Virus record (IMG/VR): IMGVR_UViG_2802428878_000002
Direction: 5' to 3' (one strand)
Length of the DNA stretch: 34,915 bases
Origin: a virus
Lineage: Duplodnaviria; Heunggongvirae; Uroviricota; Caudoviricetes
This document shows positions 2,600-31,315 of the stretch, piece after piece. The notes under the pieces were generated by a model that ran no database searches, was not told the DNA's origin, and was given only the letters and a program-made list of their open reading frames with translations. The position numbers were made by a program, and so were the translations under genes. Every line of letters starts with the position of its first letter. Positions within the stretch are counted from its first letter, which is position 1.

Positions 2600-3238
2600 T
2601 TAGGCGGCGGACGTCGTCCACCACTGGAATTGGCTGATGGCGGCTTCACGAAGGAAGCCGATCACCTGCTCGACGCTGTATCCAACGGCGGCGTATCCCG
2701 AGTTCTGATCGTCCAGCGCTCGCAGAACCTTCGCGTCGTTGTCATTGTTGGTAGGGACCTTGATCGCGACACCGGTAACCGCCTGTTCGCCGCGCTGGAA
2801 GCAGGTCACCAGTTCATTGCGGATGTTCTTCTGCATGATCGTGATGTTCTTGGCCTCCGTGAACTGACCGGTGGCCGGATCAAGCACGATGTAGTCGACG
2901 GTCGGAGCCATGACCTGCTCCTTCTCGTACTTGCTGGTGCGCTGAGCGATGCCCAGAAGCCGGAAAAGGATCGGCTTGTTGAAGTGCTCTTCCGGAATTC
3001 CGCCTCCGCCACTATTCGGGATAACGCCGATGTTGGGTGCGACAGAACTGACGCCCGCGTAACCCGCCGGCAGACCGACAGGAGCGGCGGTCGGCACGGC
3101 TGCAGCTGCCACAGGCGCCGCAGCGACGGGGGCAGCGGCCGGTGCTGGAGCTGCGGCCACCGGAGCGGCTGCCACTGGAGCGGGGGCTGCTGGAGCGGCT
3201 GCCACAGGAACAGCGGCAGGAGCGATAGGAGCGGTCAT
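2600..3238 (-). CDS. Ala/Pro-rich N-terminus plus putative OB-fold/ssDNA-binding-like domain
   Basis: AAAGAGG RBS before ATG 3238 (track start 3301). The core ILFRLL...DYIVLD...ITIMQKNIRNEL resembles a phage-type SSB pattern from memory. The gene is well supported, the function is tentative. Confidence 0.6.
   Translation of the reverse strand: MTAPIAPAAVPVAAAPAAPAPVAAAPVAAAPAPAAAPVAAAPVAAAAVPTAAPVGLPAGYAGVSSVAPNIGVIPNSGGGGIPEEHFNKPILFRLLGIAQRTSKYEKEQVMAPTVDYIVLDPATGQFTEAKNITIMQKNIRNELVTCFQRGEQAVTGVAIKVPTNNDNDAKVLRALDDQNSGYAAVGYSVEQVIGFLREAAISQFQWWTTSAA
3078..3232 (-). repeat. coding low-complexity repeat (PVAAA/PAAAP units)
   Basis: Translation TAPIAPAAVPVAAAPAAPAPVAAAPVAAAPAPAAAPVAAAPVAAAAVPTAAPV. 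Confidence 0.7.
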
Positions 3239-3636
3239 GGTAGTGCCTCTTTTCTGGTGCTGTTGAGTTGCTGTTGCTGATCTATGCCGGTGTGGATGCA
3301 TCGTCGACGGGCTTCCCTACCTGTCGAAGATGCATGCATCCGTGCCGACTGCCTAACTATTTACACCCCGTGACCGACAAGCAACTGAGACGGCAAATGC
3401 CGGTTTTCTCGGCGTGTCGCGGCTTCAGTAATGCCCCTTACACCGCGCGAAGACCGCTGTGATTTAGGGATCGTTGACGTAACGCACGCGGTGGTCATCG
3501 GCCTGGCTGTGCGCCGTTTCAGGATCAGACAAAGTCAGCTCGTGCAACTGGTGAAGCTTCTGCAGCCGTTGCGGTTTGGTCGCAGGTGTGCGCCGTCTAT
3601 GCGCATCGGCGACCGTGGCCTTGCTCGGCGCAGCAC

Positions 3637-4290
3637 CTACACCAGGAATCGGTATACGTGCCCTGGCCGGCCGGTTGGCGCTGGCTTACGTAGCTCCTCG
3701 GTTCGGCGGTATAGCGGTGAGCGGTCCAGCCGCTTACGGGCTGCGCCCGCGGTTGTCGGGCCGCAGACACCGAGCAGCGCGCGAACTTGGGCGAGGGTGG
3801 TCTCGTCGCCGAGCATGGCGCGTGTGGTGTCCGGGTCGACCAACAGGCGCTCCCCCAGGCGCAAGATGGCCGACCGTGCGATCGCCGTGTGGCCGAATGG
3901 CATTGCCTCCGGCATCTGGGTCACTGGCACAGCGCCCCTGACCTCGGCGGGGACACGGGCCACCACGACGATAGATACGGTGTGTCCGCGTTCGTCGCGG
4001 TCCGGGTCGCTGACGACGTCGACGACAGCGATGCCGCCGGTCACCTCAGTGCCGGCTTTGTCTCGCACGATGCGCTGCGCGCACTGCTCGACGGTCTCCC
4101 CCTCCCAGGCGGCCAGCAGCCCACCAGGCAACGTGATTTCACCTTTGTGCGGTGCACCGGCACGTTCGATCAACACGATCTTCGGCTCAGGGTCATCGGT
4201 GAGTGCAACGACGTCCACGCTGAGCCAGGTGCCGTGCACCGGATGATCTCCTGCGCGTACGGCCAGGTTCGATTCGGTCATCGATCTCAT
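3637..4290 (-). CDS. nrtR: NrtR-family Nudix-related transcriptional regulator (Nudix + winged HTH)
   Basis: SVDVVAL...VLIER...LPGG...ET...AxRIVRDKAG degenerate Nudix box, SDPDRDERGHTVSIV motif, C-terminal TGRPGHVYRF wing; adjacent to NAMPT. Confidence 0.8.
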   Translation of the reverse strand: MRSMTESNLAVRAGDHPVHGTWLSVDVVALTDDPEPKIVLIERAGAPHKGEITLPGGLLAAWEGETVEQCAQRIVRDKAGTEVTGGIAVVDVVSDPDRDERGHTVSIVVVARVPAEVRGAVPVTQMPEAMPFGHTAIARSAILRLGERLLVDPDTTRAMLGDETTLAQVRALLGVCGPTTAGAARKRLDRSPLYRRTEELRKPAPTGRPGHVYRFLV

Positions 4291-5810
4291 GGCTGCTGCC
4301 TCCTCGAGTGGCTGTAACGCTGATAGACACCGGTCTCACGGGTCAACGTTTCGCGCACTTCGGTGAAGCTGTATTGCCGCAACAGCTTTCCATCCTCGAA
4401 CACCAGCTTCAGTTCGTTGTCGGCTTCCTGATCGGCATCGGCGTGTTCGATCAGGTACGGCTCGCCGCTCATCGCGCGTCGCACCGCCAATCGTCCGGTA
4501 GCCGACTTCTTGGATCCGTCATCGGTGACCGGGTCTTTGAGGATGTCGTGGCCGACACCGTCGATCTGAACCCATGTCGCCTTGACGGCCAGCTTGAAAA
4601 CGTCGCGTGTTTGGTATTGGTAGGTGTAGGAACCGAAGCCGAAAACCACAGTGGTGGAGGCATAGCCCTGCACCATCAGGTTCCGCGTGATCGCGTCAGC
4701 GCGCTCAAAGGTGATCGAATCCCCATAGATCGCGCCGATGTGAGGCTCCAGCTCGCGGTACCCCTTGGCGTTGGTCACGGTGCCGAACGTCTCGGCTAGC
4801 AGGTTCACCACGCCCTTGCGAGCCGGACTACCTTCGGGCGCAGCTGGATCTCCGCACAGGATCAGCTCAGGGTCACCGCTGTCGGGCCGGATCACGAGCT
4901 TGCCGTCGCGGGCCATGATCTGTTCCTTGCGCGCGGGCAGGTACTCGGTGAGCACCCGCCACAGATCCCAGGTGTCGGAGACGACCGACAGGATTCCTTC
5001 GGGATACAGGCTCAGCAGCCGATCGAAGGTCGCCAGCTCGCCGTCCTGTCCGCCGGCACACATCACCGAGTGCTCGGTCGCCGGAACCGATGCGCCGATC
5101 AACGCTTCGCCGTTGCCGGGATAGAACCGTTCGATGAACCGGATCGCGGGCAATCCGTCGGTGCCCGTGAAGCTGATCAGGTGGCCCGCACCTGATGCGG
5201 CCGCCGCTGCGTCTCCAGCCATGCCCCGGTAGGAGAAGTCATGGCCCTGGAACTGCACCGCGGTTTCATCGCCAGACTCAGCAGCGCGCTCGTCGAGCAG
5301 CTTGCGGTTGTTCCAGGCGATGGTGGCACTGGTGATCGGCTGCCACAGCTCAGCCGACAACTGCGTCTCGAAGTAGTTGGTCAGCCAGAAGAACCGGGAA
5401 TCGGTGTTCTCCACGGTTAGATACGGAACCCGCAAAGGTACTAGCGATCCTTCCCGCACCGCCCGCACACGCAGTGGCAGGTAGCCCAACGTGTGTAGGT
5501 CGCGGAAGTGCTGAACGCCAACCGTGTTCGGTCCCAACAGCGCGGTCACAAACCGCTCATATCCGGCCAGCACCGGTTCGAGTTCGTCGGCCGTCAGGTC
5601 GAAGAACACCTGCCAGTCTTGTGTCAGCCGTTGCAGATACGCCTGCAGCCCGAAGAAGACCGTCGCATTGATACCTGGCACCCGTGTACCCCGCGCGGTG
5701 AGGTTGGAGTACACGAACTCGGTTCCGTCCGGGTACTGGCGCCGGTGGTCGAGCTTATAGGCATCGGTGGCCAGCAGCGTGTCCAGCGCACGGTTCTGCT
5801 TGTCGTTCAT
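4287..5810 (-). CDS. nadV: nicotinamide phosphoribosyltransferase family (NadV/NAMPT; could be Namat-type)
   Basis: Motifs TDAYKLDH, HDFSYRG, VPATEHS, SVVSDTWD, RPDSGDP, IYGDSIT. Confidence 0.92.
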   Translation of the reverse strand: MNDKQNRALDTLLATDAYKLDHRRQYPDGTEFVYSNLTARGTRVPGINATVFFGLQAYLQRLTQDWQVFFDLTADELEPVLAGYERFVTALLGPNTVGVQHFRDLHTLGYLPLRVRAVREGSLVPLRVPYLTVENTDSRFFWLTNYFETQLSAELWQPITSATIAWNNRKLLDERAAESGDETAVQFQGHDFSYRGMAGDAAAAASGAGHLISFTGTDGLPAIRFIERFYPGNGEALIGASVPATEHSVMCAGGQDGELATFDRLLSLYPEGILSVVSDTWDLWRVLTEYLPARKEQIMARDGKLVIRPDSGDPELILCGDPAAPEGSPARKGVVNLLAETFGTVTNAKGYRELEPHIGAIYGDSITFERADAITRNLMVQGYASTTVVFGFGSYTYQYQTRDVFKLAVKATWVQIDGVGHDILKDPVTDDGSKKSATGRLAVRRAMSGEPYLIEHADADQEADNELKLVFEDGKLLRQYSFTEVRETLTRETGVYQRYSHSRRQQP

Positions 5811-5856
5811 CGGTTCCCCTGTGTGTTGGTGTTGTCGGCGGTCCTGGCCTGCGTGT

Positions 5857-6267
5857 TCATCGTTCGTCCTCTGCTATCCATTGACGGGCGATCTCGCAGA
5901 GCGCGATCCACACGGCGTCTTTCACACGCTCTTCCCAGCCCAGTTCGTTGAACAGAACCATGTCCGGATGTGTCTTCGCAGCTACATCGCGCACAGGGCC
6001 GTATGTCCACCCCAGCTGCTCGTACGCATGCCACCAACTGTCGTGCGCCTGTTCAGGCGTCGTATACCGGTCGGGGCCCATCATCTTCTCGGTGATTTCC
6101 AGGAACTGCGCCCGGAAATGCTCCTCGCGCGCCGACCAGGGCTCCGGTACGACGGGCGCATTCACCGCGGCGGCCTGTAGCCGCGCGGCCTCGTAGACGA
6201 AGATGGCTTGTCGCTCAAGCAGAGTGCCGTTGGTCGGCCATTCGATGGCAGCAAAATTCTGAGTCAT
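5857..6267 (-). CDS. RyR-repeat domain protein
   Basis: HDSWW...[24 protein letters not shown]...ERVKD matches the RyR repeat signature (HxxW...GWxYG..D...K.HP.LV.Y..L....K.KD). Confidence 0.75.
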
Positions 6268-7151
6268 TTCGGTTCCTCGCTGATGTTGTGCAGGACGTCG
6301 AGCACGTAGCGGCCAAGTGGGTGGATCTGTACCGCCGCGCCCTCAGGTGATGTCACGGCGGCCGCTACTGCCGAGCGCAGCGAGTCGGTGGTGTGGATGC
6401 TCCGGTAGTTGTCAGTCAAGACATCGGTGCCCTTGGTGAACCCGCCGTGGGTGATCCACAGATCAAGCTCGAACCCGGCACCCAGTCCCTGAGCCAGCAG
6501 CGCGAACGTTCCACCGCCGTCGCAGATGTCATCGACCACCAAGTACCGGCCCGGTCGATCCCTCACCTCAGCGGGGGCGTTGTAGCCCAGAAGTTGTCCG
6601 GTGGCGGGATCGCGCTTCTTGTCGGCCACCGACACCGGCAGCTCTAGCTGCGCGGCGACTGTGCTCGCGCGCCGCAGCGAGCCGGCATCCGGACCGATCA
6701 CCCCGAGGTAGTCGCCAGCGTCAACCGCCGCAGCCACAACCTCGGCCAAGGAGATCATGTGAACGGAAACAGTGGGGTTGACGGCGCGCAGCGTGTCCAG
6801 CCACACCGGCGAGTGCGGGTCGATGGTGACGATCCCGGTGATTCCTGATAACGCGGCCAGGCGCGCGTTGGTGTGCGCCGGGCAGGGCGTGTCTTTGTCG
6901 CCGCGGGCGCTGGGCAGGAACGGCATCACCAAGATTCGGTGCGGGTACTGCGCCGTCAACGCCGCCCAGTTGAACACGACCGTCCAGTCCGGCGCCGCGG
7001 TGTGCACCCAGAGCACCTGCACACCCGGGACGAGATCTGCCCCATCGATGGAGCGCACCGTCAGATCACCCATCGGGTAGGCGAATATCTCTATCGCGGC
7101 CGCTTTGAGCTGTCCCCCGTCGTAGGCGAAGAACTCGTAGTCGTTCGTCAT
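6264..7151 (-). CDS. prs: ribose-phosphate pyrophosphokinase-like protein (Prs; could be Adps-type)
   Basis: [31 protein letters not shown] and PRPP-binding loop [13 protein letters not shown]. Confidence 0.85.
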
Positions 7152-7159
7152 AGCAGAAA

Positions 7160-7202
7160 CCCTACACCACTTTCGTACAGTTTGTACGTAAGTGGTGTAG
7201 GG
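7160..7202. promoter_or_regulatory. 43-bp inverted repeat overlapping a leaderless-type -10 (TAGGGT, minus strand 7164-7159) of the prs-like gene
   Basis: CCCTACACCACTT/AAGTGGTGTAGGG arms plus inner CGTACA/TGTACG; 7 nt between the -10 hexamer and ATG 7151. Confidence 0.6.
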
Positions 7203-7211
7203 CTCGGACGA

Positions 7212-7658
7212 TCAGCCGAACAGAACCAGCGTCACAGCGACCGGCGAAGCCTCTGCGACCTCCCGAATAATCCGCTCGGCCACCCCAGGGTCGAGTCCTC
7301 CGATGCCGCCGCCGATCAGCGGCAGCGCCACGGAGCTGATCCCGTGCTCAACGGCAAGGCTCAGGCCCACGGCCACCGACGATCGCACCCACTCCTCGCG
7401 GGCGTCGGGGCCCGGGTAGTACTGGCTGGCGCAGTGGATGATGGGCCGGTCGCCCGGGCCACCGGGGCAGATCATGGCCCCACCCGGTTGCAGGTCGCCG
7501 CGCCGCGCGATCACCTCGTATTGATAGATCGCGTTTGGATAGCGCTGTTTCATGATCGCGGCCACACCCGCCCCCGCGACACCTTGGCAGTTCACTCCAT
7601 GAGCCAGCGCCTCCGCAGGGTGGACGAACAGGTCGCCGGTCTCAACAGTGAAGCTCAC
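7212..7658 (-). CDS. macrodomain protein (TARG1/DarG-like ADP-ribose hydrolase)
   Basis: GDLF...ALAHGVNCQGVAGAGVA...VALPLIGGGIGGL; GAAGGAGG RBS before GTG 7658 (track start 7694). Confidence 0.88.
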   Translation of the reverse strand: MSFTVETGDLFVHPAEALAHGVNCQGVAGAGVAAIMKQRYPNAIYQYEVIARRGDLQPGGAMICPGGPGDRPIIHCASQYYPGPDAREEWVRSSVAVGLSLAVEHGISSVALPLIGGGIGGLDPGVAERIIREVAEASPVAVTLVLFG

Positions 7659-7703
7659 CAGGGCCTCCTTCGACAGAGGGACGTGACGTGACATTCAACC
7701 TGA

Positions 7704-8495
7704 TCATGCGGCATCGTGGTCCTCATCGTCCTCTTCATCCATTCCGAGGGAGACGGCTACGGGGACTTCCGGGTCGTCAACGTCCAGATCCGGGTGATAC
7801 GTGTGCGCAGACAGCACCGCTCGAAACACCCCGGCACACGTGAGAGTGACAATCGATGCTGGGTGCTCTCGCGTGTACAGCTCGACGGGTTCCTTGAATA
7901 CCGCGGCGATGGCGCTCATCTTCTTGATCACATCCGAGCCGAACGCCTGGACCTTGCCGACCTTCAGCGGTGCCGTCGTCTGGTCGTCACCAAGACCGCG
8001 CGTGCTCAGAATTTCCTTGGCGCCGCGGGCCGACAGTCGAGAGATCGTCGATGCGATCGGGAAGTCGTCGACGTCTTGCAACGGGATGTAGTGCCGCGAG
8101 TCCGCTTCTCCTGGGGCTCCGTCGGTGAGTGTGCGCATGAGCAGCGTGGAGCCGTTATCGACGACCGACAACTCGACATCACACTGGGATTCCTTGTCGA
8201 TCTTCTTGACGGCCGACGCCGCGTTCTTGGCTGCCGACAGCAACTGGGAAGCCTGATCGGTCGAGAACTTCACCAGAGGCAGCGTTCCGTCACAGCCGAA
8301 GATCGCTTGGCCCGGACTGTTTCCGTCCGAGGCGATGAACGCCAAGCTGTTCTGCGTCCCAACTTCGCCGGTCTCGACGCGCGTGGAGCCCAGTACGACA
8401 GCGGCATGCGTGGGGTCATCGTTGCCGGCATACGCCATAACCTTGGCTGCTGAGAGTCCTTGCACGAAAAGTTGGTTGTCGATAACAACGGTCAT
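7704..8495 (-). CDS. hypothetical protein, possibly sliding-clamp (beta)-like
   Basis: GAAAGGA RBS and acidic tail. The N-terminal pattern (AYAGNDD...LAFIASDG) is loosely clamp-like. The gene is well supported, the function is weak. Confidence 0.6.
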   Translation of the reverse strand: MTVVIDNQLFVQGLSAAKVMAYAGNDDPTHAAVVLGSTRVETGEVGTQNSLAFIASDGNSPGQAIFGCDGTLPLVKFSTDQASQLLSAAKNAASAVKKIDKESQCDVELSVVDNGSTLLMRTLTDGAPGEADSRHYIPLQDVDDFPIASTISRLSARGAKEILSTRGLGDDQTTAPLKVGKVQAFGSDVIKKMSAIAAVFKEPVELYTREHPASIVTLTCAGVFRAVLSAHTYHPDLDVDDPEVPVAVSLGMDEEDDEDHDAA

Positions 8496-10753: not shown

Positions 10754-13700
10754 CTATGCAGACTGCCGAAGCGCCTGCTGCTCTTGCTGCAATCGCCGGG
10801 CCACCGCGTCAACATCGATTCGCGCGGTCTGCACCATCACGTAGTCGTCGGCGTCGACAATGATCCGCCCCTGTCCGGCACGCCAGCGCATCGGCTTGAG
10901 GTGGTACGCCTGACCAATGGGATCACCAGACGACGGCGGGCTGGCTAGCTGCAGGATGGGCGCCATCATGTTCTCGCGCAACGCCACCAGGAACTCAGAT
11001 GACTTCACCCTGCCCGCGAACCCGCTGCTGCTATCCGAGACGATGAAGTGCACGCCGAGGTCCGTTCCGGTAGCGAGCAGTTCACTGACGCTCACGCCGC
11101 CGTATCGCACCTCATCGAACACCGACTTGGCCGAGTGCCCCTTGGACATGTTGGCGAAGTTGTCGACAAACACGTATACCTCGGGTCCGGTGAAGAACGT
11201 CCGCGAGCTCAGTTGCTCGGCGGTCGCATCATCGGTGGGACGGCGCGACCCCATCAGCTTGACCAACATCTCCGCCGTGTCAGCGATGTCCTCGGCGCTG
11301 GTGACATATCCCGGTGGACGTATCCGCTCGCGAACCATCGCTCCGTCGCGTTCCACTTCCCGGAACTTGGCGGGCTTTACGAATCCTCGCTCGTACAGAC
11401 GATCTCGTTCTCCAAGGTGCTGCCGCAGCGGATCGATCACAATGATGATCGCGTCCTTCGGGGTGAATTGACGCATCACCGACTCCATGACGCTACGCAG
11501 CAAGTTGGTCTTGCCGGCGCCCTTCTCGCTGTAGACCAACAGGTTCTGCGAGAAGTTCGGGACCGGAGCCAAGGACAACGTGTCCATCCGCACGCCCAGC
11601 GGGATGATCGTGTTCACGGGGTGGCGGTCCTTGTCGCTGAGCGGGGCAAAGGCAGACCACACCTGCTCGTAGTCGATCACCGGGTCTGCCGGCAGCACCC
11701 TGACCACGCGCTGCTCGGCCAGTTCAGCTGATAGATGCAGGCACAGGTTCCGAATCTCTTCACCATGATCGTGGATCTTGAAATCCTTCATACCCTTGAC
11801 ATAACCGTCCTCTTCGATCTCCCGGAAGATCGGAACAGCGGTGCGGCACTGCAGCAGTGTCAGCGGGTCCAAAGACCGACCAGGCTGATCCACCGGAATA
11901 CGCTCGCTCAGGGTGAAGCGCACTTCGGAAGAAACCTTGGCCCCGGCGTAGTCCGTCGACGGCAGCTGAACACCGCCGTTGACCTCCGCGGTGTAGTGAG
12001 TCACGTTGCCCGCGTTACCCGACCCTCCCGAGTCCGCGGTGTACACCAGGTGCACACCCACAGCGGCACCCTTATCGAGGATCGGGCGCAGCAGCTGCGC
12101 ACGCACAGCGCGGTCATCCTTCTCACCGAGGAATCCACCAATGCCGTCAATGGCCACAATTACGTACCCATACGGGTCATCTGCCACAGGGGCATTGGCC
12201 TTGGACGCCAAATATGCGTCAACCGAGGATGCTTGGCGGTCAACCATCTCGCGGCGTCGCACTTCGATCAAGCGCGAAGCCTCACCGAGGATGCGCGCGG
12301 TGGTCTCGTCGTCTTCCGGTCGTGCGTACGCCGCGACATTGGGACTGTCTTTGACCTCTCCGAGCTTGCCGGTGCCGTAGTCGGCGAGCATGAATGCCAA
12401 ACGCTCCGGTCCGTGTTGAATGCAGCCGCACACGACCAGTGTCTGAAGCAGCGTGGTACGCCCCGACTTGCCCGCACCGGCGATCACCTGGTGCGGGATG
12501 TTTCCGCCGAAGTCCATGAACCACGGCAGTCGCGTGTGCTTCTCGGGGGCATCGAGGTCGCCCACCCTGATCTTCAGCCCCTTGACTTCTCGGGTCAGAT
12601 TGAGCGTCGGCAGCGACAAAGGCTCGCGCAGCGATGGCTTCCACAGGTCCAAGGTGCGCATATCGGACAGTCGCGAGGCCTTCTCCAGGAGCACGTCGGC
12701 CATCTTCTCGCCGAATTGTTCCTCGGTGACCTCCACCGTGTCTTCTTCGACCTCCGGAGTGAATCCCCGGGTAGTGAACAGCGTGAACGGAACTACAGGC
12801 TCTGCAACTGCACCTGAGCCGTCCGCCCGGGAGCGGGCACGCTCTGTCACGGTTCGTCGGATGTAGGGGGCCTCGTGGTGGAATGCAGCCACTTCGACGG
12901 GAGCTGCGTCAGTGGTGAACTTGCGCAGGATCTTTCCCTTGAGTCCACCCTTCTTGCCCACCATCGTCGCTGCGTCGTCGGTACCGAGCATCGCGATGGA
13001 ATAGCTCGCACTGTTGACCGACAGCGAGTAGCGGAAACTCAAGTGCTCAAAGAGGTCACCGATCACGTCCTTGTTGATGAACTGGCTGCACATCACCAGG
13101 TGCATGCCCAGCGAGCGACCAACGCGACCGACACGGATCAACAGATCCAAGTAGCCGGGACGTTCCTTGAGGAACTCACCGAACTCGTCGATGATGACGA
13201 TCAAGTCCGGAAGCGGAGGCCAGCTTGGATCGTTCGGGTGCTTCTTCTGCTGCTCCCGGTAGTCGAAGATGTCCTTGCAACCCTTTTCGGTGGTGATGAA
13301 CTCCTCGCGGCGATTCACTTCGCCGTTGATCACCGCACCGAGCCGGTCGACCAGCTCCATCGTGTTCTCAAGATTGGAGATGGATGCCACGACATGTGGC
13401 AGCCCGTCCATTCCCAGGAACGTTGCGCCGCCCTTGAAGTCGGCCAGGATCAGTGCGACTTTGTCCGGGCCGTACATGGCGATGAGCGCCAGCACTATCG
13501 CGCGCAGGAAGTACGACTTACCCGATCCGGTACGTCCGGCCACCGCGCCGTGCGGGCCGTTGCCGTCGCGGTTCTCCTCGTAGAAGTTCAGGTAGGTCAG
13601 CTCTGAGGTAAGTTCGTCGCCCTTGCGGTAGTAGCCGAACGGAACCTTGATTTCATCGGTGTAGGCGTTGCGCTTCCACACTTCGATCAAGTCGTGGGTC

Positions 13701-15031
13701 TCGATATCGCCGATCTCGAGTACTTCGAAGAAGTCCGGAATGTGGTCGGGGCGATCGTCAACCACAGCTCCGTTGACGCCGTAGTTGCGTGGGCGCCACT
13801 TGTACATGGCCCGTGCGAATACTTCGGCTTGCGCGATCGTCACCGAGTCCGCGGCAGCCGCGTCGTAGTCGTCGACTGTTGAGACGCGACCGTCCTTGAG
13901 CAGAATGCGGCTCTTCATCTTTACGGGGTCGGTGACCAGGTCTTGGCCGTAGCGCACCACGAACCACGTCATGCCGTTGACTCCGCCGGAGATGTTCGCC
14001 GGCCAGGACACCATCGCGTCGGGCAGATCGATGATTAGCAGCAGGTGTGGTGGGCGCTCGTCGCTGTCCTCATTGCGCATCCGCTCGATCTGCGCCGCGT
14101 GCATCGCTGCGAATTCGTCGAGGCTGCGCCATGTGAGCAGCCGCGCGCCCAGCCCCTTTTCAACCCGCGTCACATCTTCGGTATGTGGCAGCCACTTCAC
14201 CCATTCCCACGTCTTGGGGTCGTTGGTCACCACGCCGATGTTCAGATCACTGGGCCGATGGTTGAACGCCAGCGACATAAGCATGGCCCGTACAAGCCCT
14301 AGCCTGCCTTCCTCGTCACCGCGCATCGCATAGGCGGGAAACTCGTTGAGCCGCACATCGATCGGAAGGTTGGCCACTACAGACAACGTGTTGATGGCGC
14401 GGTCGTAGCGCACCATTGTCGCCGGTTCCTGCATCTCGGGGACGACGTCGTCCGCCTGGATCAGCTTGGGATACAAGGGCGCCACACCGATCCCGACACG
14501 GGCACGCAGGTATGGGTTGGACGTCAGATTCTTGACGTCCGGGTCCGATTCATCGGCTGGCGCAACTACCCGGCCGATGTCGAGATTACGGTCGGCCTGC
14601 CACATCTCGTGAGTGCCGACCAGCGACAGAAGGTCAGCCGGATGCGGGAAGCACATGGTACGTAGGTCGTGCATAGCGCGGCCCTGGTCGTAGATCTCGA
14701 AACGCCTCTCGCGCAGCTCGAGATCGTATTCCTCTATCTCTTGGTCGATGTCGCCCCCGCTGCTGCCCTGGTTGCGCATCTGCATGGCGTACATCAGCGG
14801 CATCATGAGCATGAGCGGCATGCTGGAGAGCATGGTGACGATGGCGCGCTGACCGGTGACCAGTGACATCACCACCATGCCGATCATCACGGCGACCATG
14901 ATCAAAGGCATTGCGCGAAGCCAAATGGGCCGCTTGTCCGGAGCGGGCAAGCCGAGCGGTTCCTTGATCTGCACACCGGTGGGCAACAGCTGAACTGACT
15001 CTCGCGGCGGTGCCCGGAAAACGGTAAACAT
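10754..15031 (-). CDS. eccC: type VII secretion ATPase EccC (fused EccCa-EccCb; 2 TM + DUF + 3 FtsK-like domains)
   Basis: Walker A GRTGSGKS with LADFKGGATF and IIDEFGE; second GAGKSGRT; third SEKGAGKT; N-terminal Met-rich TM hairpin. Confidence 0.93.
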   Translation of the reverse strand: MFTVFRAPPRESVQLLPTGVQIKEPLGLPAPDKRPIWLRAMPLIMVAVMIGMVVMSLVTGQRAIVTMLSSMPLMLMMPLMYAMQMRNQGSSGGDIDQEIEEYDLELRERRFEIYDQGRAMHDLRTMCFPHPADLLSLVGTHEMWQADRNLDIGRVVAPADESDPDVKNLTSNPYLRARVGIGVAPLYPKLIQADDVVPEMQEPATMVRYDRAINTLSVVANLPIDVRLNEFPAYAMRGDEEGRLGLVRAMLMSLAFNHRPSDLNIGVVTNDPKTWEWVKWLPHTEDVTRVEKGLGARLLTWRSLDEFAAMHAAQIERMRNEDSDERPPHLLLIIDLPDAMVSWPANISGGVNGMTWFVVRYGQDLVTDPVKMKSRILLKDGRVSTVDDYDAAAADSVTIAQAEVFARAMYKWRPRNYGVNGAVVDDRPDHIPDFFEVLEIGDIETHDLIEVWKRNAYTDEIKVPFGYYRKGDELTSELTYLNFYEENRDGNGPHGAVAGRTGSGKSYFLRAIVLALIAMYGPDKVALILADFKGGATFLGMDGLPHVVASISNLENTMELVDRLGAVINGEVNRREEFITTEKGCKDIFDYREQQKKHPNDPSWPPLPDLIVIIDEFGEFLKERPGYLDLLIRVGRVGRSLGMHLVMCSQFINKDVIGDLFEHLSFRYSLSVNSASYSIAMLGTDDAATMVGKKGGLKGKILRKFTTDAAPVEVAAFHHEAPYIRRTVTERARSRADGSGAVAEPVVPFTLFTTRGFTPEVEEDTVEVTEEQFGEKMADVLLEKASRLSDMRTLDLWKPSLREPLSLPTLNLTREVKGLKIRVGDLDAPEKHTRLPWFMDFGGNIPHQVIAGAGKSGRTTLLQTLVVCGCIQHGPERLAFMLADYGTGKLGEVKDSPNVAAYARPEDDETTARILGEASRLIEVRRREMVDRQASSVDAYLASKANAPVADDPYGYVIVAIDGIGGFLGEKDDRAVRAQLLRPILDKGAAVGVHLVYTADSGGSGNAGNVTHYTAEVNGGVQLPSTDYAGAKVSSEVRFTLSERIPVDQPGRSLDPLTLLQCRTAVPIFREIEEDGYVKGMKDFKIHDHGEEIRNLCLHLSAELAEQRVVRVLPADPVIDYEQVWSAFAPLSDKDRHPVNTIIPLGVRMDTLSLAPVPNFSQNLLVYSEKGAGKTNLLRSVMESVMRQFTPKDAIIIVIDPLRQHLGERDRLYERGFVKPAKFREVERDGAMVRERIRPPGYVTSAEDIADTAEMLVKLMGSRRPTDDATAEQLSSRTFFTGPEVYVFVDNFANMSKGHSAKSVFDEVRYGGVSVSELLATGTDLGVHFIVSDSSSGFAGRVKSSEFLVALRENMMAPILQLASPPSSGDPIGQAYHLKPMRWRAGQGRIIVDADDYVMVQTARIDVDAVARRLQQEQQALRQSA

Positions 15032-15051
15032 GAGTGTTCCTTCCTTGGCGG

Positions 15052-16785
15052 TCAGCGACCGGCAGTTGAGGGATCGTTGACGGCGGGCACAGGCGTGGCG
15101 GTCTCACCGCTTGCATTGGCCGCGGGATCAGCGGTGGGCGGGCCCGGTTGTTGTGGGGACGAGGGTTCTTGCTCTTCTTCTTCTTCGGAAGGCGGGGGCG
15201 GCGGCGGTTGCCCTTGCGTAGAAGGCGGATTCGGAACCTGGGATGAGGGGTTGATGGTTCCTTGCATGACTTGGGCGTTCTTGATCGACAAGGTCGCGCC
15301 AGGGGCATAGAGCTTGGCAACAGCCGCCGGAATCGGTGTCGGCGAAATCGAATCGAATCCCAGCGCTTTGACGGTTGGGTCATACGAGACTCCGCCGTTG
15401 CGCGCGATTACCACGTCGATGGGGAATCGAGTTCCGTTGGGGTCGATCCACAGCAGTTGCTCCGCTGCAACTGAATCGGTGCTGTCGCCGGTGATGCGCG
15501 CGTACCAGCCGTAACCGGGACGGGTGATTGAATCGGTCGCCTGATCAGTGGTTCCGTTGTTCGGCAGTAGGTGTACTGCCGCCACCCGACCCGACTCGGT
15601 AACTGGCATCCGCGAATTGGTGAAAATCCGGGTATGAGCTGTGAGCTCACCGACTGTCTTGGTCCAGCTCCAGCACAGAGCGGGCTCACTGACCAGCGTC
15701 GGCACCTGCGCGGGGAAACGTGAATCGTCCACGATTGCGATCCGCGGCATCGCCTGCACCGAGGCCGGGTCGTCGACGAGCTTCTGTGCGGCTCCGGTGT
15801 TGATCATCATCTGCGCGAGAACAGGACTGACTTGCTGTACTCCCCCAGACCCGACCAGGTAAAAGGCCCGCGCCCCTGAGGCGGTTGTCACTGTCAGCAC
15901 ATCGCCGATGGCTGAACCGTTCACTGTCGGGCTGGGCTGGCCCTGGTTGACGAGCCTTGGCGCGGTGAGCACCGGCGAGGGAGCGATCGTGGCGAGCAGC
16001 GAGGGAGAGACGGTCACTGCGGATTCGATCAGCGATGGTGTCAGGCCCAGCGCGGCCTGGGCGGCATAGTCGCCGCGACCGACTTCTGCCCGAGTGTCCC
16101 GATACAGCAGCCACAACCGCGTCGGGTCACCAGCGGGTTTAACCAACACCGCGCGGGTGTTTCCCAGATCAGTTCCACCATCGAGCATGTCGTCTCCGGC
16201 GATCACAGCTGTGGTGATGTCGCCGGTCTTGAGCAGCGAGAGCGGTACCGCGGTGTCACGCCAGTCGCACACGGTCCACACCGCTGTTTCATCAGTTCGG
16301 GGCGACAACAGATTCGGCGCGCTGGGGATGCCCATGAGCGGGCCGGTGGGCAGCGAACGCAGCGCTGCGTCGGTGGCCACTTTGGCTTCCTCCGGCTTGC
16401 CGACGATCAGGCGTGCCGAAGCCAGGTTGGTTACTGGGTGCAGCCGGCCGTTGAACTGAACGAAGATGCCGCCGGAACGAGTTGTCATGATCGCGGCGAC
16501 GCCCGAATCGGGCTTGGGGTTGATCATCGAGACGATGAAGGCCGCCACGAGAACAAGCACGCCGCCCACGAGGCTCACTGACAGCGACCCCCGCAGACGA
16601 GTCAGGGGCGAGCCGACACCGCGCACATCCTGACGCGACAGTGCTTCGTCGATGCGATTGAGTTCACGCTTGTACCCTTTGATCTGGCGACCGGTGGTCA
16701 CGTACCAAGGCACTGCTGTATCGGTGCGATTGCGTGCACGCTTGGGCCCCTCGGCCTGTCGGCCATCGGCAGAATTCCCGGCCAC
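15052..16785 (-). CDS. eccB: type VII secretion membrane protein EccB
   Basis: TTGRQIKGY, single TM, LHPVTNLASARLIVG, GIPSAP, WTVCD, LCWSW motifs; GAAGGAG RBS before GTG 16785 (track start 16851); Pro/Glu-rich tail. Confidence 0.92.
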   Translation of the reverse strand: MAGNSADGRQAEGPKRARNRTDTAVPWYVTTGRQIKGYKRELNRIDEALSRQDVRGVGSPLTRLRGSLSVSLVGGVLVLVAAFIVSMINPKPDSGVAAIMTTRSGGIFVQFNGRLHPVTNLASARLIVGKPEEAKVATDAALRSLPTGPLMGIPSAPNLLSPRTDETAVWTVCDWRDTAVPLSLLKTGDITTAVIAGDDMLDGGTDLGNTRAVLVKPAGDPTRLWLLYRDTRAEVGRGDYAAQAALGLTPSLIESAVTVSPSLLATIAPSPVLTAPRLVNQGQPSPTVNGSAIGDVLTVTTASGARAFYLVGSGGVQQVSPVLAQMMINTGAAQKLVDDPASVQAMPRIAIVDDSRFPAQVPTLVSEPALCWSWTKTVGELTAHTRIFTNSRMPVTESGRVAAVHLLPNNGTTDQATDSITRPGYGWYARITGDSTDSVAAEQLLWIDPNGTRFPIDVVIARNGGVSYDPTVKALGFDSISPTPIPAAVAKLYAPGATLSIKNAQVMQGTINPSSQVPNPPSTQGQPPPPPPSEEEEEQEPSSPQQPGPPTADPAANASGETATPVPAVNDPSTAGR

Positions 16786-16938
16786 CGCAACTCCTTCTTC
16801 GCCAAGCCAGCCGGCCAGGCGGCCGGTCTCGATGCGTGGGGAGGGTGGCAAAAACCAGCGGCTACAGCGGCCCGCGGCGCGAGGTGCGACAAAAGGGCAG
16901 CCGCGTCTGGCACCGCTGTTCAGACAAGCCGTGGTGTA

Positions 16939-20729: not shown

Positions 20730-21665
20730 CAGTCCGATGCCCCGGAGCACGGCACCAACCCAATCTCGCCGATCACATCGTCGAAGGTTCCAAGCAAATC
20801 GCCTGCAATCTCGTTCGATATCTCTATAACCGAGAACGCATCGATTGCACCAACATCTTTAGCGGTGGCCAGACGCTACACCGCCTGATCAGCTGAAACC
20901 ACACTCTGCGGCCAAACGCAGCGCCTCACCTCCCCGAATTTAGCTGGGCAATGTCGCTGACCAGTGATACCGTCAGCTCGTGACTTTGATACGCCTCGAC
21001 CAGCGAGTTGCCGGGATGCAGACAGCATCACCGGCGGCTTTGTCGTGGCTGGAATCGGTCATCAAGACCCAAGAGCTCTCCACGGTCACGAGCCACGATT
21101 TCGGCCAGCCCAGATGCTTCCGGTCACCCCGATATGACCTATCCGCCCTCCCCGTGGGCGAGCGCCCCGATCGGAAGCAAGGGCCAGGGAACAAATCTCA
21201 TAAAAATCTCAATATTTGCGTTTCTGCTGCTAGGGATGTCCGCTAACACTCCCTTAGTTCAGCACGCTTTGAATTACCTTGCCGCACAGCTGATTTAGAT
21301 AAATTGTGCTTTACAAGACTCGTATTCCGTAGCACCATCATGTTCAGCACGAACGAGAAGATCGCTCGATTCGCTGCCGCACGCGGGACGCTAAGGCGTT
21401 CTCCTGCCAGGACTTTGAAAACTCCAGAGTGTGTGATGCACCGCCCCTCACGAGGGTCGATGAACAAGCCGTCTCGGCGCCCGGGGCTCCCAAGAGAGTC
21501 AATGACCGGTCAGCCAGTCGAGCATGCTCATCCTCAATCCTCCTGTCGGGGCGGTCCGCCGGGCGCCGCCATGCGCCCGGCCCTCATGCCAGCTTTCCGT
21601 TAGGAAGCAGGTATGAGTTCCGTTTGGTTGGATTGGTGTCAAATCCATTGCAACCAAACGGATAT

Positions 21666-21739
21666 GCGCCTCTAGCTCATCTGGCCAGAGCACCTGACTC
21701 TTAATCAGGGGGTACGGGGTTCGAGACCCCGGGGGCGTA
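21666..21739 (+). tRNA. tRNA-Lys(CTT)
   Basis: Cloverleaf; CCTGA CT CTT AA TCAGG; no CCA. Confidence 0.92.
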
Positions 21740-21744
21740 CGTAG

Positions 21745-22229
21745 GTAGCGTGACGTGCGGTGGAGTAGACCGCACACGTACCAGCGGGTGGTGCCGGGTA
21801 CTGGGTACGCGGCCAAGGTGCCGCAACCGACCACCAATCGGCTCCTACCCACTCGCAGATTCTTCCGGTGTCAGAACCGGTTGGGGTGTCGCGGCGGCAC
21901 CGATAGGCGCGAGATATACCGCCAACCGTCCACGGCTCGATTGCTCCGATCCCACTCCTCCTTCGCAAGGCGGAGCGGCGCGGCATCTCACCGCGAAACG
22001 ACAACCCGTTCACCCAGTAGGGGCACCCGACGGTGAGCGGCAGGGTGCAGGGTAAGACACCTTCGAGTGGGTCGAACCAGAGAGGGACACCGGCACACCG
22101 GTGTGGCGCCGTGGACAGACACGGGGGCGATAATGCAGCCCTTGACGGAGCAGGAGCCGCCTCGTTCTGGCGGCAGGCTAGAAATCCGAACACCGAGTGG
22201 TCCCGTCGGGCGCAACAATCCGGGACGCT
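21745..22229 (+). ncRNA. candidate large structured RNA, class unknown
   Basis: Non-coding gap with at least 10 hairpins; boundaries approximate. Confidence 0.45.
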
Positions 22230-22301
22230 GCGAGCGTGGTCCAATGGCTACGACCTCAGACTTCCAATCTGATGATGCGGGTTCGATTCCCGTCGCTCGC
22301 T
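22230..22301 (+). tRNA. tRNA-Gly(TCC)
   Basis: TCAGA CT TCC AA TCTGA; U73. Confidence 0.92.
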
Positions 22302-22304
22302 CTT

Positions 22305-22373
22305 GGTGCCCACGACGGTGGGTAGGGACAGAGGACGGTCCCTTCGCCACGGGGTTCGATTCCCCGCGTTGGC
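22305..22373 (+). pseudogene. degenerate tRNA-like element (intact T-arm only)
   Basis: CGGGG TTCGATT CCCCG at 22350-22366; no valid D-arm or anticodon loop. Confidence 0.35.
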
Positions 22374-22454
22374 TTCGGCCCGCGGTGCGGAACTGGTGAT
22401 GCCAGCTGGTCGGTGCCAGGTACCGGATCACTGCCGACCTTCTCCAAACATCTT

Positions 22455-22539
22455 GGCCCTGTGGCGAAACATGGCAGCCGCGCCGGATTCAAACTCCGGT
22501 GTCCGACAGGACGTGTGGGTTCGATTCCCTCCAGGGCTA
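22455..22539 (+). tRNA. tRNA-Leu(CAA)
   Basis: CCGGA TT CAA AC TCCGG; long variable arm. Confidence 0.9.
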
Positions 22540-22557
22540 CCGCGTCCGAATGAACAA

Positions 22558-22629
22558 TGCCTTGTGGGGTAATCGGCAGCCCACTGGATTTTGGCTCCGG
22601 GAGTTCAGGTTCGAGCCCTGGCGAGGCAG
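22558..22629 (+). tRNA. tRNA-Gln(TTG)
   Basis: U1-A72; CTGGA TT TTG GC TCCGG. Confidence 0.9.
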
Positions 22630-22655
22630 CAGGTCGGCGGACTCGAAACGCACAT

Positions 22656-22727
22656 TGCCCGGTGGTCTAACGGCAGGACTCCTGATTCTGGATCAGGTCG
22701 GTGGAGGTTCGAATCCTCCCTGGGCAG
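22656..22727 (+). tRNA. tRNA-Gln(CTG)
   Basis: U1-A72; CCTGA TT CTG GA TCAGG. Confidence 0.92.
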
Positions 22728-22840
22728 CATCGCGAATTCCACTGTGCGGAGTTAATCGCCCGCGTGGCAGTGGTCTTCGCAGGTGGCGTTCCAGGAGCAT
22801 GTTCGACGCTATGGCCCCATTCCAGGATCGCCGCCACAAC

Positions 22841-22917
22841 GCCCTGATAGCTCAGTCCGGCCAGAGCGGCTGCCTTGTAAGCAGTGTCCGTCGCCGGTTC
22901 GAATCCGGCTTGGGGCT
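22841..22917 (+). tRNA. tRNA-Thr(TGT)
   Basis: GCTGC CT TGT AA GCAGT. Confidence 0.9.
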
Positions 22918-23012: not shown

Positions 23013-23152
23013 CGGTTGTCGGTGACCAGCCCGCTGCGCGAGCGGCACGCGGAACCGTCAGACTCGGCACTCCTCTGCCCACGCAGGGGTCATTGGCTGG
23101 CTAAGCCGCACCGAGCAAGTCAGCTGCAGCTGGCCGAAAGGCGTGGGTGTCT

Positions 23153-23439: not shown

Positions 23440-24214
23440 CGAGGCATGGCTCGATAACCGGAGGTGACTCCGGGAAAGGTGGGTGTGACACCCCGCCGCC
23501 ACATCTCTACGGGGATGTGGCACACCATGCACGGCTCCCGCAAGGAGTACCTGGGCAACCGGGTGCCACAGCGGTCCGAGTTCGGCGACAGAAGGGACGG
23601 CGAGTGCTCACCTTCGCGCCGGCGCCACGCAGCGCCGGCACCGCCACGTGAACGAGGACTGCCAGCGGGGTGCGGGGGAACACCAGTCCGAGCTCGCCAG
23701 GCGAGGGCGGTTCCCATGACCTCGGAATCCGGTGGGCGCATCGGTGCACGACGAAGAGCGCAGCGGCTTGGCGGCCAAGCGCGAGGGTGTGAAGCATTCT
23801 GTGGCTCAAAAGGTTACGGAACTTCGCGGGAAAGCACATCCTCAGTCACAAGCACTAGCTCAATTGGCAGAGCAATCGTTTCTGGAACGGTAGGTCGCCG
23901 GTTCAAGTCCGGCGTGTTTATCCAAGCGAAAGACTTTCCCTGCCACGGCTCGAAAGCGCCGTAATCCTCGGCCCTGCACAGGGAATCGAGGCAACCGTGA
24001 ACTCGCAAGGTGATCGGATGTCCGTGAGGCAGTAGAGCAATACAGGGGTTAGCTCCCCCTGTGCGAATCGAAACCTGCGGAGTAGATCGTGGCATGACGA
24101 GTGGCTGCCGCAAGCAGCCCGGCGTGACGGTTACCAGGGGAACCTGGATGGATAAATCGGGAAACCATAATCCGATGAGAGACCGTTGCTTTGGGGCCTA
24201 ATCTCAGCCCCAAA
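23440..24214 (+). ncRNA. GOLLD-like large ornate RNA
   Basis: ~775-nt hairpin-dense non-coding block inside a mycobacterial tRNA array near an HNH gene, with an internal tRNA. Size and context match GOLLD; not confirmed with the covariance model. Confidence 0.7.
23849..23924 (+). tRNA. tRNA-Gln(CTG)-like element embedded in the GOLLD-like RNA
   Basis: GCTC AATTGGCA GAGC D-arm; ATCGT TT CTG GA ACGGT; GCCGG TTCAAGT CCGGC; C1.A72 mismatch; CCA. Confidence 0.75.
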
Positions 24215-24435: not shown

Positions 24436-24903
24436 ATGACGACGATCGTGTCCGCGCCTTCCGTGCGGGTGTTCAACGCCGACTATTCGTTCCTCGACAC
24501 CGTACGCTGGCAAGACGCGGTCGGCATGCTTCTACGTGACGTGGCATACGCGCTGGAGGCGCACGTGCCCCCGCGCATCGTCCGCTCGCCAAGCGCCGAG
24601 GTGGAGGTGCCCAAGTCGCTTCTGCTGACTCGGTACGCCCCTGTCCCCTACCGGCGTGATCCGGAGTTCGCCTCGCGTGCCGAGATTCTGCGCAGGGACA
24701 ACTACCTGTGCCAGTACGTCGGCTGTGGGGCCAAGGCCACCACGATCGATCACGTGTTCCCGCGTTCGCGCGGCGGCGCACCGTCAACGTGGACGAACCA
24801 GGTAGGCGCGTGCGAGCCGTGCAACGGCCGCAAGGCAGACCGTACACCGGAGGAAGCGGGTATGAAGCTGATCCGCGAGCCTTTCCGGCCAGCGCACATC
24901 TGA
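24436..24903 (+). CDS. HNH endonuclease (McrA-like)
   Basis: VFNADYSFL, EILRRDNYLCQYVGC...TIDHVFPRSRGG..W.N.V..C..CNGRKADRTPEEAGM; AGGAGG RBS (track start 24340 lies inside tRNA-Ala). Confidence 0.92.
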   Translation: MTTIVSAPSVRVFNADYSFLDTVRWQDAVGMLLRDVAYALEAHVPPRIVRSPSAEVEVPKSLLLTRYAPVPYRRDPEFASRAEILRRDNYLCQYVGCGAKATTIDHVFPRSRGGAPSTWTNQVGACEPCNGRKADRTPEEAGMKLIREPFRPAHI

Positions 24904-30124: not shown

Positions 30125-31315
30125 GTGAGCACACAATTCCCCGTCACGATGCGCGGGGCAGACAACGTCGCACTCTGGGCGTACGAGCATGAGATCGAGC
30201 CGGCCGCCCTGAACCAGTTGCGCAACATCGCCACTCTCGGGCCGGTTGCTAAGGTGGCAGTGATGCCAGATGTCCACTTGGGCAAGGGCGCCACGGTCGG
30301 ATCCGTCATCGCGATGCGAGATGCGGTCTCCCCCTCGGCGGTCGGCGTCGATATCGGTTGTGGTGTCTGCGGCGTCCGAACGTCTCTTTCAGCCCACGAT
30401 CTCCCGGATGATCTGTCCGGGCTGCGCTCCGCGGTGGAGGCAGCGATTCCGGTCGGATTCAACTCGCACGAGCGGGCCGTGAACGTCCAGCGTCTCGGGC
30501 TGCGTACTGCTGAGCACGATCGACTCTGGCAGTCGGCCAAGGCGATTCACGCCAACGTTGACCCGTTCGGTGGTCGTGCCCCGCGCCAGCTCGGCACGCT
30601 CGGTGGCGGCAACCATTTCCTCGAGGTGTGCCTGGACGGCGAGGACCGCGTATGGCTTACCCTCCATTCAGGATCGCGTAACGTCGGCAAGGAGCTGGCT
30701 GAGCGACACATCACGGTCGCAAAGGGCCTGCCGCACAACGCAGATCTACCGGATCGAGACCTGGCGTTCTTCTACGCGAACACCCCGGAGATGGACGCTT
30801 ACCTCTACGACCTGACGTGGGCGCAGCAGTACGCCGCGCTGTCGCGGCAGGTGATGATGGCGCTGTTCCGCACCGTACTCAGTGAGGCCTTCGCAGGAGT
30901 GCGGTTCACCGACGAGATCAACGTGCACCACAACTACGTGCGCCGCGAGACTGTTGGCGGTGAGGAGTTCATCGTCACCCGCAAGGGGGCTATTCGCGCA
31001 GGATCTGACGAACTGGCGCTGATCCCCGGCAGCATGGGTACGGGCTCGTACGTGGTGCGCGGTTTGGGTAACCCTGACTCGTTGTTCTCAGCTTCGCACG
31101 GGGCGGGTCGCAAGATGAGCCGCTCCGCCGCCAAACGGACATTCACCGTCGAGGATCTGGCAGAACAGACCGCCGGCATCGAGTGCCGAAAGGACGCTGG
31201 TGTCGTCGACGAGATTCCCGGGGCCTACAAGGACATCCACGGTGTCATCGCCGCTCAGGACAACCTCGTCGCCGTAGTGGCGCACCTGCGCACCATCCTC
31301 TGTGTGAAGGGCTAA
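30125..31315 (+). CDS. rtcB: RtcB RNA 2',3'-cyclic phosphate/5'-OH ligase
   Basis: MPDVHLGKG, GVDIGCG, LGTLGGGNHF, LHSGSR, HNY, RKGA, IPGSMG, SHGAGR, DEIPGAYK; GGAGG RBS before GTG 30125 (track start 29894 spans tRNAs). Confidence 0.96.
   Translation: MSTQFPVTMRGADNVALWAYEHEIEPAALNQLRNIATLGPVAKVAVMPDVHLGKGATVGSVIAMRDAVSPSAVGVDIGCGVCGVRTSLSAHDLPDDLSGLRSAVEAAIPVGFNSHERAVNVQRLGLRTAEHDRLWQSAKAIHANVDPFGGRAPRQLGTLGGGNHFLEVCLDGEDRVWLTLHSGSRNVGKELAERHITVAKGLPHNADLPDRDLAFFYANTPEMDAYLYDLTWAQQYAALSRQVMMALFRTVLSEAFAGVRFTDEINVHHNYVRRETVGGEEFIVTRKGAIRAGSDELALIPGSMGTGSYVVRGLGNPDSLFSASHGAGRKMSRSAAKRTFTVEDLAEQTAGIECRKDAGVVDEIPGAYKDIHGVIAAQDNLVAVVAHLRTILCVKG

Follow-up and report, generated by a model that had tools for sequence, protein, structure and literature searches.

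A tRNA-array spacer of Mycobacterium abscessus carries a tandem of structured RNA modules, one of which accumulates as an apparently undescribed RNA

The tRNA array in the window, which is the whole stretch of 34,915 nucleotides that was analyzed (IMG/VR virus record IMGVR_UViG_2802428878_000002), begins with a tRNA-Lys gene followed by about 490 bases that hold no tRNA gene, and the question raised by this locus is what these bases encode. A sequence-only reading had proposed a single ornate RNA of ~480 nt, released by tRNA processing and possibly belonging to an undescribed large class found beside GOLLD. The tRNA brackets on which this proposal relied were confirmed.

21666..21740, + strand: tRNA-Lys(CTT), first tRNA of the array and 5' bracket (ARAGORN and Rfam)
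21741-22229, + strand: spacer between tRNA-Lys(CTT) and tRNA-Gly(TCC), ~490 bases
22230..22302, + strand: tRNA-Gly(TCC), 3' bracket (ARAGORN and Rfam)
23448..24210, + strand: GOLLD RNA of the same operon (Rfam RF02032 at 23782-24210, 198.7 bits; read-end pile-ups at 23448/9 and 24196)

In all, 36 tRNA genes lie on the + strand of the window from 21666 onward, forming a G2-type Mycobacterium abscessus tRNA array with GOLLD, HNH and RtcB; the HNH gene (24436-24903) has 99% identity to an M. abscessus protein, and the identity of the spacer in M. abscessus-type assemblies is 97.5-98.4%. The same element encodes EccB, an EccC-like FtsK ATPase, RtcB and NAD-salvage-like enzymes. The eccB and eccC-like FtsK ATPase genes (type VII secretion) are located at 10754-16851 on the minus strand, which places the array on an ESX-carrying mobile element, and the RtcB RNA ligase gene lies within the array at 30125-31315; RtcB also adjoins the arrays of cluster M phages. 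On the minus strand at 3637-7151, a nicotinate/nicotinamide phosphoribosyltransferase gene adjoins PRPP-synthetase-like and NUDIX-like genes, a cluster that we take to resemble the phage NAD-reconstitution counter-defence pathway NARP1. Downstream of tRNA-Gly, a tRNA remnant (22308-22373) retains the acceptor stem and T arm without D or anticodon arm and gives a weak mascRNA match; the bases after it (22380-22440) are partly conserved in the arrays L141 and L207. The spacer between tRNA-Thr(GGT) and tRNA-Gly(GCC) (23013-23152) is 76-82% conserved in most G2 arrays, has no Rfam match and is another candidate for a structured RNA. In the G2 array group of Morgado and Vicente, GOLLD (~430 nt) is the only non-tRNA RNA reported (PMC5966550, PMC6582537), tmRNA having been reported as non-tRNA RNA in other array groups (G1/G4) (PMC5966550), and tRNA arrays are regarded as putative anti-defence units (PMC12803027).

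The reading that the spacer holds no credible ORF was borne out, as no frame is conserved and stops and frame-breaking indels vary among homologs. Rejected candidates were a protein-coding frame and a tmRNA tag near 21996 (frames not conserved), an anti-Shine-Dalgarno mimic at 21952-63 (not conserved), and an anticodon-loop mimic (the 7-nt loops are engaged in pseudoknots). The Rfam comparison that had been suggested found no family match in the spacer up to E=10, save chance-level microRNA matches, nor any in the spacers of five homologous arrays up to E=0.5; Rfam and ARAGORN were both negative in the spacer, in agreement with the earlier statement that no RNase P, tmRNA, Ms1 or intron signature is recognisable. 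No description of these spacer RNAs was found in the open literature searched, the coverage of which was incomplete.

Folding energy did not distinguish the spacer from shuffled controls. Its minimum free energy of -214.6 kcal/mol corresponds to a z-score of -1.34, with 12 of 100 shuffles folding as well, its 14 local hairpins compare with 9.5 +/- 2.8 in shuffles, 9% of which reach 14, and no homolog gives more than a weak z-score (+0.8 to -1.7). The ten helices listed from the sequence alone are all present, those given with coordinates lying where they had been placed. As native structure, the set in the 3' part is supported by homologs, with the exception of 22062-66/22072-76, which is probably not native because it clashes with the covarying helices 22058-61/22066-69 and 21999-22002/22071-74.

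Orthologous arrays were gathered via the HNH gene, one plasmid match and genome searches, and homologs with covarying helices were found in them. The whole spacer fills the tRNA-Lys(CTT)/tRNA-Gly(TCC) gap in M. abscessus (485-489 nt) and in M. conceptionense (L254, 487 nt). Only the 5' part, consisting of modules A and B, is found in plasmid pCBMA213_1 (L001, 190 nt) and in M. aubagnense (L143, 176 nt); the 5' part and a terminal hairpin, module D, are found in L141 (234 nt); and only the 3' part, here called RNA2, is found in the single lineage L212-L214 (292 nt), where it directly adjoins tRNA-Lys. The first 120 nt are replaced by a small ORF in Tsukamurella tyrosinosolvens (L207), which keeps the rest (module B and RNA2), and in L190-192, L193, L195 and L216 a D-like hairpin is all that is left of the spacer. 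A different H-type pseudoknot and an ORF of ~140 codons replace the modules upstream of D at L195:8310-8370 (minus strand). In a tree built from nine tRNAs and HNH, the whole spacer occurs in two distant clades, and L212, with RNA2 only, is sister to L001/L143, with A and B only (support 92 and 96). The simplest reading of this pattern would be an ancestral tandem with reciprocal losses of opposite halves in sister lineages. L254 shares helix H5 with L212 but its last ~75 nt with the window, and recombination between arrays is likely; this weakens the argument from the tree and leaves the stand-alone occurrences of the units unaffected.

The 3' unit, as refined by comparison of the homologs, comprises about ten helices and three pseudoknots.

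21936..22229, + strand: RNA2, ~294 nt, the accumulating RNA (stands alone in L212-L214; RNA-seq depth)
~21956-75: GCAA-capped hairpin
21979-83/21991-95: helix H2
21986-89/22080-83: pseudoknot of the H2 loop with 22080-83 (one double change)
21999-22002/22071-74: helix P3, enclosing H3, the junction strand 22041-57 and H4
22006-13/22033-40: helix H3
22041-57: nearly invariant 17-nt junction strand
22058-61/22066-69: helix H4
22087-91/22100-04: helix H5
22109-13/22120-24: helix H6
22125-28/22138-41: helix H7
22156-61/22169-74: helix H8
22164-67/22188-91: pseudoknot of the H8 loop with 22188-91 (double changes in two columns, three pair types)
22193..22226, + strand: module D, with the 3'-terminal hairpin 22200-05/22221-26, ending 3 nt before tRNA-Gly

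Seven helices of the 3' part had been written down before any homolog was seen and thus served as a prior prediction. In alignment A3, 10 of their 42 pairs showed double changes and 95% of cells paired, which none of 500 shuffles reached, and slid controls of the same helices paired in 35-44% of cells. Changed pairs stayed paired in 75% of cases, versus 30% in other stems of the window; against L212 alone, the most distant lineage, nine of ten double changes kept the pair, and single changes numbered 7 versus 19 expected. The refined structure, which was fitted to the same sequences, has double changes in 14 of 57 pairs and 98.8% of cells paired. H7, P3 and two of the pseudoknots were added by an unbiased helix scan, the excess of which was modest (five intramolecular helices with at least two double changes versus two in a control of twice the search space). 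The covariation comes from four lineages, with 65% to 88% pairwise identity and unit lengths of 292-312 nt, and most of the double changes are contributed by L212/L213. These comparisons indicate a conserved, covarying fold. It belongs to no described family. The 5' leader of RNA2 can pair with 22043-49 or with 22206-09, and the most conserved unpaired stretches (21996-22005, 22041-57 and 22210-20) may be where a partner would bind.

The 5' part resolves into two modules.

21748..21856, + strand: module A, ~109 nt, closed multi-branch RNA (homologs in L254, L141, L001 and L143)
21748-52/21852-56: module A closing helix P1
21755-60/21770-75: module A helix P2 (double changes)
21778-82/21797-801: module A helix P3 (double changes)
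21802-07/21846-51: module A helix P4 (double changes)
21809-13/21820-24: module A helix P5
21827-30/21838-41: module A helix P6
21787-91/21831-35: module A probable kissing loop (invariant, hence outside covariation support)
21762-65/21842-45: module A possible pseudoknot
21865..21932, + strand: module B, ~70 nt (seven sequences)
21865-69/21876-80: module B first hairpin (its own double change in Tsukamurella, where A is absent)
21885-89/21897-901 with 21892-96/21927-31: module B pseudoknot (the L220 variant changes a strand to better pairs)
21906-09/21920-23: module B hairpin in the pseudoknot loop

The double changes in P2, P3 and P4 of module A are supplied by L254, where both strands of P2 and of P4 are also longer by one inserted base. 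Taken together (~190 nt), modules A and B have double changes in seven of 59 pairs, which none of 500 shuffles reached; a stricter test on the three helices listed beforehand in this part gave P values of 0.013 for the kept fraction and 0.13 for the count, a weaker result than for RNA2. A model of module B, R1, finds it only at this spacer position. Module D is probably an H-type pseudoknot formed via 22193-96/22206-09 with an A-rich third loop, with 21946-49 as an alternative partner. A version of its hairpin is kept with compensatory changes where the rest of RNA2 is lost (L141, L195, L216, L190 and L193), and the pseudoknot pairing is kept or extended in arrays with that piece alone (L141 and L195). 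Helices between the 5' part and RNA2 that carry a double change numbered 7, versus 11 in a reversed control, none with two double changes, and no helices of either part with GOLLD exceeded the reversed control.

Expression was examined in X21, a set of raw stranded RNA-seq reads from a 2026 run that bears the same species label as the best holders of the spacer. First mates derive mostly from the minus strand, and the spacer RNA is thus of the + strand. Mean depth per 121-nt bin rose from 16 (21747-21867) to 245 (21868-21988) and 851 (21989-22109), and fell to 321 (22110-22230) and 51 (22231-22351); other bins of tRNAs and spacers ranged from 11 to 175, and those of GOLLD from 2700 to 8300. 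Point depths of 49-85 in module B and 830-950 at 22028-22077 fit a 5' end of RNA2 near 21936, a position estimated from this depth profile and from L212. The terminal hairpin of RNA2 is directly preceded by a pile-up of 40 fragment ends at 22197; this may reflect priming bias rather than a true end, because GOLLD shows a similar pile-up 14 nt short of its Rfam end. In X8, from another study, the RNA2 core assembled as a separate contig with a word depth of 3520, versus 58 for 22366-22911, contig depth being a poor measure of level. This contig is a closed 103-nt cycle from 22146 back to 22044, the joint of which falls within a 10-nt direct repeat, near-perfect and confined to the M. abscessus version. 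The cycle is probably the product of reverse-transcriptase template switching plus removal of tips by the assembler, because of this location and because the joint is absent from the raw X21 reads. RNA2 is transcribed from the + strand and accumulates selectively, with the second study in agreement; modules A and B do not accumulate in these libraries, so that the earlier expectation of a stable transcript holds for the 3' unit only. It is possible that a ~190-nt RNA1 made of A and B was lost in library preparation, as tRNAs are, and the low depth is not proof of instability. The ~50-fold difference in depth between module A and the centre of RNA2 is not expected from a uniform 490-nt RNA.

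The region upstream of the array was inspected for signals that could account for the transcript.

21310..21338, + strand: likely array promoter (-35-like hexamer, 17-nt spacer, weak -10)
21413..21433, + strand: rRNA-operon-type boxA-like antitermination motif in the array leader

The promoter hexamers and their spacing are kept in L001 and L212, and RNA-seq depth rises there; a sigma-70 scan did not call this candidate (21310-21338). Host 16S rRNA genes have the same boxA-like motif ~150-190 nt upstream, and it recurs in the leaders of the arrays G665, G551 and G238; together with the known role of boxA, this suggests that the array is probably one antiterminated transcript. Within the leader (21413-21580), the ~170 nt after the motif are conserved at 71-76% in all G2 arrays, with an X21 depth of ~170. 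Upstream of the promoter, a non-coding element of ~100 nt (21100-21200) is 70-82% conserved across over 20 array loci, some belonging to array types that otherwise have nothing in common with the spacer. It has no Rfam match at the gathering score, and it may be a DNA element because it has almost no X21 reads.

Our preferred reading is that the spacer holds several distinct structured non-coding RNAs, already arranged in tandem in the ancestor, that travel as passengers in the long transcript of a mobile tRNA operon. We assign this reading a probability of roughly 0.7, a figure that covers identity and biogenesis and not any role as a decoy. Transcription would start at a single promoter and pass through an antitermination leader of the rRNA type. 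RNase P cleavage at tRNA-Gly would then make the 3' end of RNA2, and a cut or 5'-to-3' trimming near 21936, at the border of module B and RNA2, would make its 5' end; where A and B are absent, 3' processing of tRNA-Lys would do so. The terminal pseudoknot and the pairing of the 5' leader would shield both ends, so that RNA2 outlives other spacers. Of the original proposal, the conserved, structured, non-coding and apparently undescribed nature of the RNA stands, as do its place beside GOLLD and its presumed release from the tRNA operon transcript; the unit is a tandem and not one RNA, as judged from the distribution among arrays, the missing cross-pairing and the depth difference.

A single ornate RNA of ~490 nt, with partial arrays as its decaying pieces, would account for the full 485-489-nt arrangement being kept in two lineages as distant as M. 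abscessus and M. conceptionense, and for a spacer that exactly fills the gap between the tRNAs. It is nevertheless unlikely, given that the pieces still covary when alone (L212 and L207), that sister lineages lost opposite halves, that no covariation crosses the units, and that depth differs so strongly between module A and RNA2. A neutral GC-rich spacer or decayed tRNA remains with chance helices would agree with the non-significant folding z-scores, the frequent loss among arrays and the real tRNA remnant adjoining at 22308-22373, but compensatory changes lie far above controls, two pseudoknots included, selective accumulation was seen in two studies and no T-arm motif occurs in the spacer; the covariation tests and RNA-seq largely refute this explanation, the least probable of those considered. 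Only marginally more credible is that RNA2 is a domain that split off from GOLLD, or that it pairs with GOLLD; the two share a transcript, and GOLLD is present in every array with RNA2. GOLLD occurs in 7 of 7 array lineages with A and B or RNA2 versus 1 of 5 without, a comparison confounded by kinship. Judging from read ends, GOLLD here is ~760 nt long as it stands, the spacer has no RF02032 match, RNA2-GOLLD helices number 14 versus 10 in a reversed control with none having two double changes (non-canonical tertiary contacts aside), and L001, L143, L141 and L216 have GOLLD without RNA2.

As to function, RNA2 might be a trans-acting decoy or scaffold, compact and resistant to nucleases, whose invariant junction strands would engage a protein or an RNA machine of the host. 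It would then form part of a translation-rescue and counter-defence kit of the ESX-carrying element, together with the spare tRNA set, RtcB, GOLLD and the NAD-salvage-like genes. This role is put forward only tentatively, and it is favoured ahead of a cis role for modules B and D and of a ribozyme or circle; by their distribution, RNA2 and A+B are dispensable in many arrays. It is rather doubtful that pseudoknots B and D serve in cis, as exonuclease road-blocks or processing signals for tRNA-Gly or the operon, with RNA2 as a by-product. Module B does lie directly 5' of RNA2 or of tRNA-Gly, and in most arrays 3 nt separate D from tRNA-Gly, also where the remainder of RNA2 is missing, with compensatory changes; such a role leaves the ~250-nt multi-helix core with its invariant junction strands unexplained, however, and L001 and L143 are entirely without D. 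A cis role for B and D may also be compatible with RNA2 acting in trans. A self-excising ribozyme in RNA2 (or B), the products of which are circularised by the RtcB of the element, would suit the closed X8 cycle, the RtcB gene on the element and the compact multi-pseudoknot fold with invariant junctions. It is improbable, as the location of the joint in the M. abscessus-only repeat and its absence from X21 favour template switching, no Rfam ribozyme matches, and inspection did not recover HDV-like, hammerhead, twister or pistol cores. An HDV-like ribozyme in module B was rejected separately, its P2 candidate being broken in L001, L141 and L207 and deleted in L143. Unlikely, though somewhat less so, is the bolder proposal that RNA2 represents a new class with a biochemistry of its own, a self-assembling or catalytic multi-pseudoknot RNA, processed and possibly circularised by RtcB, that counters host RNA-targeting defence; if true, the array would be an operon of several unknown RNA machines, not spare tRNAs with one GOLLD.

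Compared with known RNAs, RNA2 resembles GOLLD (PMC5966550, PMC6582537, PMC12286853) in lying in the same operon, between tRNA genes of a mobile element, in accumulating, in its multi-helix fold with pseudoknots, and presumably in release by tRNA processing. It differs in size (~290 versus ~760 nt), in having no embedded tRNA and no model match, and in a peak depth about a tenth of that of GOLLD in X21. RF02032, which represents the conserved 3' domain, matched neither the window's spacer nor those of five homologs, and true GOLLD elsewhere in intact arrays scored 163-219 bits. The ~760 nt of GOLLD in the window compare with ~430 nt covered by Rfam; it contains a tRNA-Gln(CTG)-like gene (23849-23924), with many reads ending at 23916 and a back-junction from 23857 to 23804 in 77 reads. 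Like ROOL, RNA2 is an ornate RNA of mobile elements near tRNA islands, with three pseudoknots, abundant and dispensable (PMC5737381, PMC12286853), but ROOL averages 581 nt and spans three phyla, whereas RNA2 is half that size without an Rfam match; the ROOL model found nothing in the spacer up to E=10, and the unit of 292-312 nt compares with ~580 nt. The ARRPOF and raiA-motif RNAs are likewise compact ornate bacterial RNAs of similar size (PMC12990946, PMC5737381), and RNA2 at ~290 nt is nearer to ARRPOF, a dimer of 255 nt (PMC12990946), than to GOLLD or ROOL. Unlike these, it does not lie beside fructose-pathway or raiA/comFC genes, and it has no Rfam match.

Ms1 is a chromosomal, RNA polymerase-binding mycobacterial RNA of ~300 nt with conserved synteny. 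RNA2 is of similar length, abundant and found in the same hosts, but has no Rfam match or chromosomal homolog in the genomes searched, and the Ms1/6S Rfam models had no match in the spacer or five homologs. The tandem H-type pseudoknots and the tRNA-array setting recall tmRNA (PMC5966550), but the spacer has no tRNA-like domain, conserved tag frame, or ARAGORN or Rfam call. RNase P RNA (P4 pseudoknot, CR-I 5', CR-V 3') gave no Rfam match in the spacer or five homologs, and a fragment at 22044-57 similar to the P13 region was rejected, as this strand pairs differently by covariation; group I and group II introns gave none in the spacer, and both flanking tRNAs are intact. With a covarying, pseudoknotted fold found in four lineages only, RNA2 appears to fit among the ornate passenger RNAs of tRNA islands. 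It works like GOLLD and ROOL in setting, presumed biogenesis and abundance and is a member of neither.

The family looks narrow, having been found in G2 arrays of Mycobacteriaceae and nowhere outside them in the loci and genomes searched. BLAST of the spacer found nothing in 50,697 phage records and one plasmid, pCBMA213_1, with the 5' part only; BLAST of the L212 RNA2 gave short chance matches only, and pattern scans of viral contigs found no spacer RNAs. A short-hairpin pattern scan of genome contigs, a poorly covered collection, gave 28 loci, none confirmed by profile search, and metagenome scans gave first none and later 24 matches attributed to chance, which lacked tRNAs and were unsupported by the profiles. 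R1 and the RNA2 model R2 found nothing in the G1 phage arrays (Rey, Bongo), other mycobacterial arrays, an Arthrobacter plasmid array or HNH-linked viral tRNA islands. In sampled genomes (150 of the family and 150 of the class), R2 found no new homolog and no host-chromosome match, its one weak match (G065) lying in DNA that reads as coding; a second sample of the genus yielded the same arrays. Several searches by HNH arrived at loci without arrays. The unpublished genome G071 underlies none of the claims, and runs X8-X18, whose word shares are small, were kept out of any statement on habitat.

RNA2 is a conserved and expressed RNA, apparently undescribed, and the spacer comprises two or three RNAs that form new structural families within the ornate passenger RNAs. 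To GOLLD and ROOL, RNA2 adds a smaller, structurally unrelated ornate RNA that is expressed in clinical M. abscessus and shares the transcript of GOLLD; its presence varies naturally among arrays, its ~290 nt make it convenient to transcribe, probe and image, and deletion or expression in a laboratory host is feasible. Arrays so far described as tRNAs with GOLLD or tmRNA contain additional conserved RNAs, together with an antitermination leader of the rRNA type.

IS elements interrupt two arrays (L143:1889-5560 and L219:4312-5547), and GOLLD is split by one in M. aubagnense. The window has a 4-nt duplication after tRNA-Lys (21741-21744) without counterpart in other strains. In the versions from M. 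abscessus, changes break P1 of module A (21749-52) and the pair that closes the UUCG hairpin (22066), and the window alone has G at 22043; these changes and the window-only G may be early decay.
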